From: a phage
Sequence record: PZ386975.1
DNA: 64,000 bases
Direction: 5' to 3' (one strand)
Below, piece by piece: positions 43,966-45,656 of this stretch; positions within the stretch are counted from its first letter, which is position 1, and every line of letters starts with the position of its first letter. Both the position numbers and the translations under genes were made by a program. The notes under the pieces were generated by a model. It searched no databases. It was not told the DNA's origin and saw only the letters and a program-made list of their open reading frames with translations.

Positions 43966-45656
43966 CGTCTATCAAATTCCTTTCCAGAATCTTAAAACCC
44001 ACCTAACAAGTCAGAACTTTACCAATGATTCGATAGAATCTATCTCATACCTTAAAAAGCAATAACTCTATAGTCTACTCTATAGCCTTTTATCAAATCA
44101 ACTTAAATATAAGCCCATAACCCGAAAGGGAAGGGCAACCACTAAAACGCTCTATAAAGCTCTATAACAGCCTTATCAACCTAACTTAATGGATTGCATT
44201 AACCCACCTTAAAAAGCTCTTTACAGGGCTTTATAGAGACTTAAAAGAATCTTATAAGGTTATAAGCTTTATTATCTCGTTAGCTATCTTGTGAACTACT
44301 AAAAAGGGCTATGAGATAGGACTCTATGAGGGGTAATTCATTACCTGAATCACTATCAAATCCTATTGTTATTGTCTTAAAAGTATGTTATATGGGTTTG
44401 AAAGTAGCTTAAAAGTTACGTAAATGCTAGCCCCCTTAACATTTTCTTAACAATTTCTTAACAAACCCTACATAGCTATGCTTGTTAGCCCCTTGTTAAA
44501 TTTCTGTTAAGACCACGTAAAAGCCTTGTAAGAGTCTTTGGCATAGCCTTAAAAGCCCCTGTAAAGCCCTATAAAGAGCTATCCATACAGTTGAGGGGTA
44601 AATACTAGGAAGAGGCTTAAAAGAGCCTATAAAGAGTTATAGAGAGCTTTTAAAAGGTATGTTTAAGGAATCACTAAGAAAGGAAAGGGAACGATAAGAG
44701 AAGAGAGTTGTGTTTGTAAACAACCACTGTGACCATGTTAACAGCTTGTTAAAAAGATTAAACACTTGTTAGAAGCTTGTTAATTATCTTAATTGGTATT
44801 GTTACCAATCCCTAACAAAATAACTCTTCAAAATTAACTTGTTAGCTCTTGTTAGTCATCTGTTAAGACTCTGTAAAGCCCTATCAAGCCTTGTTAGAAA
44901 ACTGTTACAGCCTTGTTAGTTCTGTTGAGAAACTGTTAAGACCTTTGAAGAATTGTTAAGAAGATGTGAGAATTGTTAAGAGATTGTTAAGGATATTTTA
45001 AAATTCTGCAAAGGGGATGTTACAGGGATGTTAAGGGCTACCAAGCAGATATACATCTTCTACAGATATTTTTGAGTTCCTTCAAAGACCCTAAAAAAAA
45101 TGACTTGACAGTCCTATTTTATAAAAATTTTAAGATTCTGAATAATTACCTATACAGCCTTTTAAAAATACAGGTAATAACAGGCTTATAAGATACCTTG
45201 TTAGTACCGTGTTAGACCTTGTGAGATAAGGTCTGTGAAGATATTCCTGTTAAGTTTGTTAAAACAGTCTATATAGAGGCTTAGTAATACCTAGTGAACA
45301 CCTATAGAGAGTGTCATAGCTGACATAGAGATTAAGAGGTGTATAGGAGCTTCTAAGAGGATGTAGAGAGATGGTTAAGGTGATTGTATAGGTTGTTAAG
45401 AAGGCTTGTTAGAAGAGTGTTTAGAAGGATTGTTAGAGGGCTTGTTAGAAGGGTTATACAGAGGGGCTATTAAGACCACTAGATAGTTACTAAGATACTA
45501 TATAGTACTATATAACTATATAGAGAGTAAGATTAAGAAGGTTGTTAAGAAGGGTAAATATTTTATTCACATATGATGGTGACCCAGAGGTTGGGACAAC
45601 CGATAAAATTTTATAAAAATTAAAAAGCCCCCAATTAAGGAGGCTCTCAAGATATT
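43966..45656. repeat. ORF-free repeat-dense region (iteron-like) at convergent junction
   Basis: No ORF of 60 aa or more on either strand over about 1.7 kb; more than 20 copies of YTGTTARR, plus CTTAAAAG and TATAAAGAGCT motifs. Confidence 0.6.

Follow-up and report, generated by a model that had tools for sequence, protein, structure and literature searches.

The non-coding region and its repeated motifs

The region under study lies at a convergent gene junction of a phage genome, within a window of 64,000 nucleotides (the whole stretch of DNA analyzed here, sequence record PZ386975.1), between a + strand gene that ends at position 43903 and a – strand gene that ends at position 45657. The intervening 1753 bp (43904–45656) constitute the largest gap in the window that is free of any ORF of at least 60 amino acids, as judged from the ORF list, so that the ORF-free convergent junction of 1.7 kb proposed in an earlier, sequence-only reading of this DNA is borne out. 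The biggest ORFs inside the gap comprise 37, 42, and 39 amino acids, and the next-largest ORF-free gap of the window, 910 bp in length, is located in the tRNA cluster. The terminator scan revealed terminators after both flanking genes, pointing into the gap (43942–43959 and 45648–45623). On the left side, two hairpins close the rightward gene block (43914–43965, + strand; found in the sequence and by the terminator scan), the first being GGGGCTATTTAGCCCC and the second AGCCCCTTAAATGGGGCT, which is followed by a T-run and represents an intrinsic terminator; these hairpins are kept in 13 phages, and the terminator is annotated in the records of AYO145A and Maleficent. On the right side, the leftward gene block is closed by an intrinsic terminator (45623–45648, – strand) that is also annotated in AYO145A. 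No tRNA was detected in the region by the tRNA scan, all 24 tRNAs of the window being found at 55–60 kb.

Judging from its sequence, the window belongs to a Felixounavirus, a Felix O1-like myovirus, and its gene set, including DNA polymerase, primase/helicase, NrdA, rIIA/rIIB, 24 tRNAs, the large terminase subunit (TerL), and the portal protein, is typical of the group. The region is matched with 80–95% identity by 257 phage records, 167 of which cover at least 80% of its length; nearly all of them are Felixounavirus (phages of Escherichia, Salmonella, and Shigella), and remoter matches occur in Mooglevirus and Suspvirus. A gap of the same size (1.6–1.7 kb) is present between the homologous converging genes in all three genera, and an earlier genome announcement has already mentioned it as a 'noncoding region containing repeat sequences'.

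The motif YTGTTARR occurs 21 times in 43966–45656 (17 copies on the + strand and 4 on the – strand), as compared with an expectation of 0.95 copies based on the remainder of the window (Poisson P ~3e-21) and with 1.2 ± 1.1 copies when the region itself is simulated by a first-order Markov model; motif enumeration thus bears out the more than 20 copies that had been claimed, where about one is expected. The core TGTTA is present in 39 copies (31 on the + strand), corresponding to 23 per kb vs 2.6 per kb outside the region. The gaps between neighboring motif copies cluster at multiples of ~10.5 bp (binomial P 6e-5), and tandem runs were identified by TRF at 44435–44464 (period 11), 44948–44991 (period 10), 45014–45037 (period 11), 45194–45222 (period 11), and 45393–45452 (period 12), so that the tandem arrangement noticed earlier is also confirmed, with periods of 10–12 bp. 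The other two repeats named in the sequence-only reading fared unequally: CTTAAAAG does recur in the region (five copies), although it is not specific to it, with 16 further + strand copies elsewhere in the window, whereas the copies claimed for TATAAAGAGCT are reduced to a single exact one at 44569, the remaining copies being approximate (e.g., CTATAAAGAGTT and CTATAAAGCTCT).

Position and anatomy of the genome ends

The linear chromosome has been shown to be cut in this region, and both virion ends of close relatives carry the repeat. The records of phages E9 and Ro111lw, which have been opened at the ends that PhageTerm predicted, start at window position 44430 and have exact repeats of 580 bp and 613 bp, respectively, at either end, the right edge of which lies at 45042; a terminal repeat of 613 bp is also given in the Ro111lw paper. 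In UAB_Phi87, the ends have been mapped by Bal31 digestion, to which two SpeI fragments were sensitive, in combination with run-off sequencing, leading to a direct terminal repeat (DTR) of 608 bp. The published DTR sequence corresponds to 608 bp in UAB_Phi87 and to positions 44438–45044 of the window, the latter with 91% identity, and the identity to the DTR-bearing records is 86–93%. By homology to E9, Ro111lw, and UAB_Phi87, on which the assignment of the termini of the present phage is based, a DTR of ~613 bp is placed at 44430–45042 (no strand assigned), the left genome end being at ~44430 and the right one at ~45042, with one copy of the repeat contained in the collapsed assembly. The region has the appearance of an ORF-free convergent junction in the circularly collapsed assembly because transcription of both gene blocks runs towards the ends and is halted at the terminators.

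The ends obtained by the two mapping methods, PhageTerm and run-off sequencing, are 8 nt apart on the left and 2 nt apart on the right. Furthermore, the SpeI end fragments of UAB_Phi87 calculated in silico are ~2739 and 4437 bp for the published 608-bp DTR and ~2747 and 4435 bp for boundaries of the E9/Ro111lw type, differing by ~70–115 bp from the published sizes of 2819 and 4322 bp. The location of the ends can be regarded as secure, in contrast to the exact bases of the cuts. The region contains the start or end of several database records, with those of E9, Ro111lw, and SPJ41 all breaking at window position 44430. The start points of the records of dune (~45407) and PHB11 (~44825) and the end of RPN213 (~45122) were taken as assembly breaks at repeats and rejected as termini. 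The nanopore-assembled contig of KMM2 (Mooglevirus) ends 15 nt short of the right boundary; the 'DTR' of this phage is an assembly overlap of 64 bp and was discarded as a terminal repeat. FIfi106 (Kolesnikvirus) was likewise set aside as evidence for a terminus, its record starting in coding DNA and having an assembly overlap of 123 bp. In the record JN225449.1, the sequence starts at a point other than the termini.

TerL, by which the repeat boundaries are expected to be cleaved, is encoded 15.7 kb away from the repeat, outside the flagged interval (60738–62354, + strand; PHROG 979, E 8e-234). It shares 99.6% identity with TerL of UAB_Phi87, which has been assigned in the UAB_Phi87 paper to the DTR terminase cluster of Felix O1-like phages. 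Thus, on comparison with related sequences, every feature of a short exact DTR that is testable here is found: the two ends of the linear virion DNA share one sequence in the relatives E9 and Ro111lw, the repeat boundaries represent conserved sequence features (13 phages, three genera), and TerL belongs to a DTR-generating clade (PHROG 979; UAB_Phi87 cluster).

The anatomy of the boundaries was derived from an alignment of these 13 phages, representing Felixounavirus, Suspvirus, and Mooglevirus. The left boundary reads ...GTTACGTAAATGCTA/GCCCCCTTAACATTTTCTTAACAATTTCTTAACAA... and the right boundary ...GGGGATGTTACAGGGATGTTAAGGGCTACC/AAGCAGATATACA... (with the slash marking the edge of the repeat), and both are the best-conserved spots of the alignment, the 25-bp windows at 44429–44453 and 45029–45053 scoring 0.97 and 1.00, respectively, in the 13 phages. 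When read inwards, both DNA tips show CCCTTAACAT at 3–5 nt from the end, followed by phased TTAACA units. On the window strand, the three motif copies at the left boundary are reversed (TTAACA), almost all other copies being in the forward orientation. As in pac-type sites, phased motif copies flank the cleavage position, with TTAACA beginning 6 nt from the left tip and TGTTAAG stopping 9 nt from the right tip.

Within the DTR, three TTAACA units (TGTTAA read in reverse orientation) with 11-bp spacing are located next to the left genome tip (44434–44464, – strand; motif count, TRF, and alignment), as compared with five units in Si3. They are arranged head-to-head with three forward TGTTA units, also with 11-bp spacing (44481–44511, + strand; motif count and alignment), for which most relatives have four. 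Farther to the right, the alignment and conservation scores reveal four TGTTA units (CATGTTAACAGCTTGTTA ... CTTGTTAGAAGCTTGTTA; 44734–44782, + strand) that are nearly invariant in the three genera, and a palindromic mini-insertion of 22 bp, AATTGGTATTGTTACCAATCCC (44791–44812, no strand assigned), which most relatives lack at this position, some of them having it elsewhere. A long phased array of ~17 TGTTA-type units with a 10–11-bp period (44838–45036, + strand; TRF, alignment, and spacing) then extends up to the right DTR boundary; some of its units are degenerate (TGTTG, TGTGA, and TTTGA), and the final unit is TGTTAAGGGCTACC.

The DTR is flanked by two non-coding sub-terminal segments, neither of which is assigned to a strand. 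The left segment (43967–44429, 463 bp; motifs and alignment), located just inside the right-hand repeat copy in virion DNA, holds units of the CTNTAAAG/CTTAAAAG type with a 10-bp period, together with two indel-rich, poorly conserved patches (43979–44028 and 44304–44378). Just outside the left repeat boundary, the alignment shows what is left of a 33-bp tandem unit of varying copy number (approximately GGGGCTATRAAGTTACTTCAAAGTAACGTAAAA) with the palindrome TTACGTAA (44376–44429, no strand assigned); 1 to 5 such units are present depending on the phage, Si3 having an expanded number, and this unit explains the extra 33-bp repeat by which VSe11 and VSe102 have been reported to differ in a genome announcement. 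The right segment (45043–45622, 580 bp; alignment and conservation), located just inside the left-hand repeat copy in virion DNA, is the best-conserved part across the genera and contains an AT-rich invariant block, CTATTTTATAAAAATTTTA (45113–45131), arrays of TGTTAG, and units of CTATATAG and TATAGAG. It includes three units, ACCTTGTTAG, ACCGTGTTAG, and ACCTTGTGAG, with a 10–11-bp period (45194–45225, + strand; TRF and alignment), which are invariant across Felixounavirus, Suspvirus, and Mooglevirus, and five 12-bp tandem units (TTGTTAGAAGGN; 45390–45452, + strand; TRF and alignment), present in 2 to 5 copies depending on the phage. The TGTTA arrays extend into this right flank only. Unit numbers drift between phages for the CTTAACATTTT unit, the 33-bp unit, and the 12-bp unit at 45393–45452.

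The TGTTA cores inside the DTR are more conserved than other positions (0.94 vs 0.79, Mann–Whitney P 4e-14, a value that is optimistic, as are all P values of this test, because the sequences compared are phylogenetically related), whereas the TGTTA positions outside the DTR are not more conserved than their surroundings in the same alignment. Across the genera, 76–82% of positions are kept in the DTR and right flank, as against 17–70% in the flanking coding DNA, and the neighboring 207-aa protein is only ~50% identical.

Proposed packaging model and possible alternative roles of the arrays

The results described above identify a feature that is real and statistically robust, and its explanation is an ordinary one, namely, the ends of the phage chromosome. 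We consider it rather probable, with some reserve, that the whole region represents the end region of a Felix O1-like phage genome, which forms the concatemer junction in replicating DNA, with the arrays and flanks probably serving for packaging recognition. Among the functions suggested in the sequence-only reading, it is accordingly the packaging site that gains support, with a DTR extending from 44430/38 to 45042/44 and the densest arrays abutting both of its boundaries. Both the helical phasing and the preferential conservation of the motif cores speak in favor of a protein that binds to one face of the DNA.

In the predicted mechanism, as we infer it, the terminase or an accessory DNA-binding protein acting as its partner would bind the helically phased TGTTAAG/TTAACA arrays during packaging, and the oppositely pointing arrays at the two boundaries would position two staggered, strand-specific cuts, that is, one nick per strand at the 5′ edge of the repeat, a few bases outside the CCCTTAACAT unit. 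As the nicks would be 613 bp apart, the strands could separate, leaving 5′ overhangs, which would then be filled in by DNA polymerase to yield a full copy of the repeat at each daughter end, by analogy to the T7-type model. In T7-type phages, one repeat copy is contained in each concatemer junction, and the second copy is made during maturation (PMC10438801). Thus, the arrays probably serve to position the two cuts that duplicate the repeat, and the sub-terminal arrays, especially those at 45043–45622, probably provide extra sites for recognition by, or assembly of, the packaging complex.

A more specific form of this mechanism may be considered tentatively, although we would sooner bet against it than for it: the mirror-arranged, phased TTAACA/TGTTAAG arrays might constitute a recognition code for two symmetric nicks outside CCCTTAACAT, and the unusually conserved 45043–45622 might be a second functional element to which a further phage protein binds, for instance an origin or a site of packaging initiation. 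If true, this recognition code would imply a sequence-defined duplication of the terminal repeat in a myovirus without a T7-type RNA polymerase. The placement of the TGTTA arrays in one flank and the strong conservation of the right flank are not explained by symmetric nicking. Neither the 66-aa ORF upstream of TerL (~60534–60731; PHROG 4397) nor the ten flanking proteins could be recognized as a small terminase or as another packaging protein that binds DNA. When compared with PHROGs and Pfam, these ten proteins (five per side) all fell into families of unknown function with no DNA-binding domain, as did the 66-aa ORF, and no Kolesnikvirus matches were found for the flanking proteins. The protein-binding array envisaged in the sequence-only reading is plausible in view of the helical phasing and the conserved cores in the DTR, but no binding protein was found among the proteins scanned.

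The arrays could instead be iterons of a replication origin, perhaps existing besides the terminal repeat, where an initiator would bind the phased repeats and melt the adjacent AT-rich block. This would suit the helically phased direct repeats, the 40-bp block of 12.5% GC at 45115–45154 with a core invariant in the three genera, the one match to the DnaA-box consensus at 45563 (0.11 expected), and the conservation of the non-coding flanks beyond the apparent need of a cut site alone. However, it is at the two DTR boundaries that the densest arrays are found, oriented as mirror images, and the five genes on either side show no signature of Rep, DnaA, or a helicase loader; moreover, the lone DnaA box is degenerate in most relatives, and no IHF consensus was found in the scan of the region. 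The cumulative GC skew is at a local maximum here, not at a minimum, and tracks gene orientation throughout the window, and no origin has been assigned to the region in the literature found. An adjacent initiator gene and a skew independent of transcription, both expected of an iteron-type origin, are missing, and an origin at this site seems unlikely to us; of the two further functions that had been proposed at the outset, the replication origin retains weak and non-specific support (the DnaA box and the GC-poor block), with the GC-skew check following the direction of transcription, and the partition site has nothing in its favor in a lytic phage.

A role in DNA entry appears somewhat less probable still. 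In this case, the sub-terminal DNA would act as a pause or stop signal, or would protect or join the ends of the first-injected DNA. The T5 terminal repeat contains a repeat-rich injection stop region, to which the sub-terminal DNA would be comparable. The region is located at the physical ends, the flank beside the left end is strongly conserved, and there are no outward-reading genes or promoters, so that the segment is not needed for early transcription, all of which would be compatible with such a role; against it, the mirror arrangement at both boundaries is tied more simply to cutting. It is quite improbable that the region encodes non-coding RNAs or translated micro-ORFs, the repeats being incidental. 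The folding z-scores of the right flank are indeed mildly negative (–2.0 and –2.7, on the two strands), but similar values on both strands fit palindromes at the DNA level, and the scan of 43500–46000 against Rfam 15 at E up to 1 gave three chance-level matches, none of which reached the threshold (the best had 25 bits vs a gathering score of 55, with E 0.29). The sigma-70 promoter scan gave 10 sites vs 8.6 ± 3.0 in shuffled sequences, that is, no enrichment, and the transcription units on either side end before the region is reached. TTGACA at 45105 was considered as a promoter element and rejected, as it lacks a usable –10 element and reads TTGATA in most relatives. Short CDSs have been annotated in the region by several depositors, but these micro-CDSs vary by record, and the three ORFs of 37–42 amino acids are broken in relatives by indels whose lengths are not multiples of three (e.g., 2 nt at 45096–45103 and 22–23 nt at ~44704–44728). 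Finally, we give hardly any credence to the view that the repeats are functionless, slippage-prone or low-complexity DNA in a gene desert; such DNA could account for the varying copy number of the 33-bp, 12-bp, and CTTAACATTTT units, but the region is better conserved across the three genera than the flanking genes, the motif cores are kept while the spacers drift, and the boundaries are invariant.

Significance and comparison with known systems

Many Felix O1-like genomes in the database are opened at arbitrary points, often inside the repeat region, and micro-ORFs are annotated across it. With 44430–45042 recognized as the terminal repeat, the genomes of therapeutic and biocontrol phages can be oriented and annotated correctly and the repeat restored. 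For engineering, e.g., in the knockout libraries of Bas63, the region represents DNA to be left undisturbed. Furthermore, the recognition and duplication of terminal repeats are understood mainly for T7-like podoviruses, and the present region offers compact, conserved, and mirror-symmetric candidate motifs in myoviruses that are easily grown.

With regard to mechanism, the closest analogues are terminal repeats of the T7 type and terminase recognition sites. Iteron-type origins, like the present region, contain direct repeats with ~11-bp phasing beside an AT-rich block, but here there is no adjacent initiator gene, the arrays track the boundaries of the repeat, and neither the skew nor the literature lends support. 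The P1 pac hexamers, pacL/pacR of SPP1, and the R sites of lambda cosB are terminase recognition sites composed of short phased repeats; they share with the present arrays the multiple copies of a 6–8-bp motif, the helical spacing, and the flanking cleavage, which fit an oligomeric small terminase. However, a single cut or nick pair is made in P1, SPP1, and lambda, giving headful or cohesive ends, whereas two sites 613 bp apart are involved here, and no small terminase is recognizable. The DTRs of T7, T3, and SP6 also belong to a non-permuted linear genome, measure a few hundred base pairs, and are present in one copy in the concatemer. They differ from the present DTR in length (160–230 bp vs 613 bp) and in the repeat motif, which is unrelated, and also in gene arrangement, the early genes of these phages leaving the left end, whereas the genes at both ends point to the ends here. 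T7 reportedly also has arrays of short repeats adjoining its terminal repeat, as Dunn and Studier are said to have described in 1983. The transcription pausing that is linked to maturation in T7 need not hold for the present 87-kb myovirus without a phage RNA polymerase.

In the literature found on the DTRs of Felix O1-like phages, only the length or sequence of the repeat is reported, and there is no mention of the phasing of the arrays, of their mirrored arrangement at the boundaries, or of how well the flanks are conserved across genera; the architecture of the arrays thus appears to be undescribed in the literature that could be searched. The identity of the region itself is already known, the terminal repeat having been published, including its sequence in UAB_Phi87. 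The DTRs of UAB_Phi87 (608 bp), Ro111lw (613 bp), Pr103Blw (581 bp), and E9 (580 bp) occupy the same locus, have homologous sequences, and differ in nothing substantive from that of the present phage, which is a further member of this group.

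Palindromic elements of the end region

A 22-bp palindrome, AATTGGTATTGTTACCAATCCC, is present as a single copy in the window (44791–44812), and further copies lie in the sequences of other phages, designated here by handle and position (L002:1756, L016:1143, L008:7766, and L009:1284 and 1901). It occupies four distinct sites in the non-coding end regions of various phages, in either orientation, and further phages do not carry it at those same sites. Because site occupancy thus differs among phages, AATTGGTATTGTTACCAATCCC resembles a tiny mobile insertion in its behavior. The smaller palindrome GATTCGATAGAATC (window 44027–44040; elsewhere L009:1120, L010:3060, L011:670 and 972, L016:1526, and L008:7283) is likewise variably present or absent at differing end-region sites, being located within or beside terminator hairpins in phages SUSP2 and Maleficent.

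The end region in deposited records

Many deposited Felixounavirus genomes are broken at assorted points within the repeat-bearing end region, and micro-CDSs are annotated over the region in several records; those concerned by one or the other include dune (MN850636.1), ekra (MN850644.1), PHB11 (MK524176.1), RPN213 (OL800606.1), Z31, and BPS17L1. Such features are probably assembly artefacts arising from the terminal repeat together with the short repeats. GU169904.1, deposited under the name Staphylococcus phage SA1, matches the Felix O1-like end region at 135353–137023 with 84% identity and also contains the flanking gene for a 207-aa protein; its assembly appears to be chimeric or contaminated.

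Other sequence features of the window

The Dam/MboI-type site GATC is completely avoided, with a count of 0 across the full 64-kb window versus ~225 expected from base composition, while other 4-bp palindromes occur in 13 to 547 copies each. Immediately 5′ of the large terminase gene, at the position expected for a small terminase, lies a 66-aa coiled-coil-like ORF (60534–60731) assigned to PHROG 4397, of unknown function; no recognizable small terminase was found within the 64-kb window.

At the two divergent gene junctions, clustered copies of CTTAAAAG (6738–6878 and 52918–52987) are situated directly downstream of promoter-like TTGACAAGGTGT sites, near-identical at both junctions; this pairing suggests a common early-promoter or leader element, separate from the end-region arrays. 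The words CTTAAAAG and ATAAAGAGCT are also common to the end region and an intergenic repeat of ~57 bp, present in two copies (38960–39020 and 40640–40700) and composed of a hairpin, GGGGCTTAAAAG...TAAGCCCC, followed by AGATAAAGAGCTTTACCACT; the paper on the Felix O1 genome describes this intergenic repeat.
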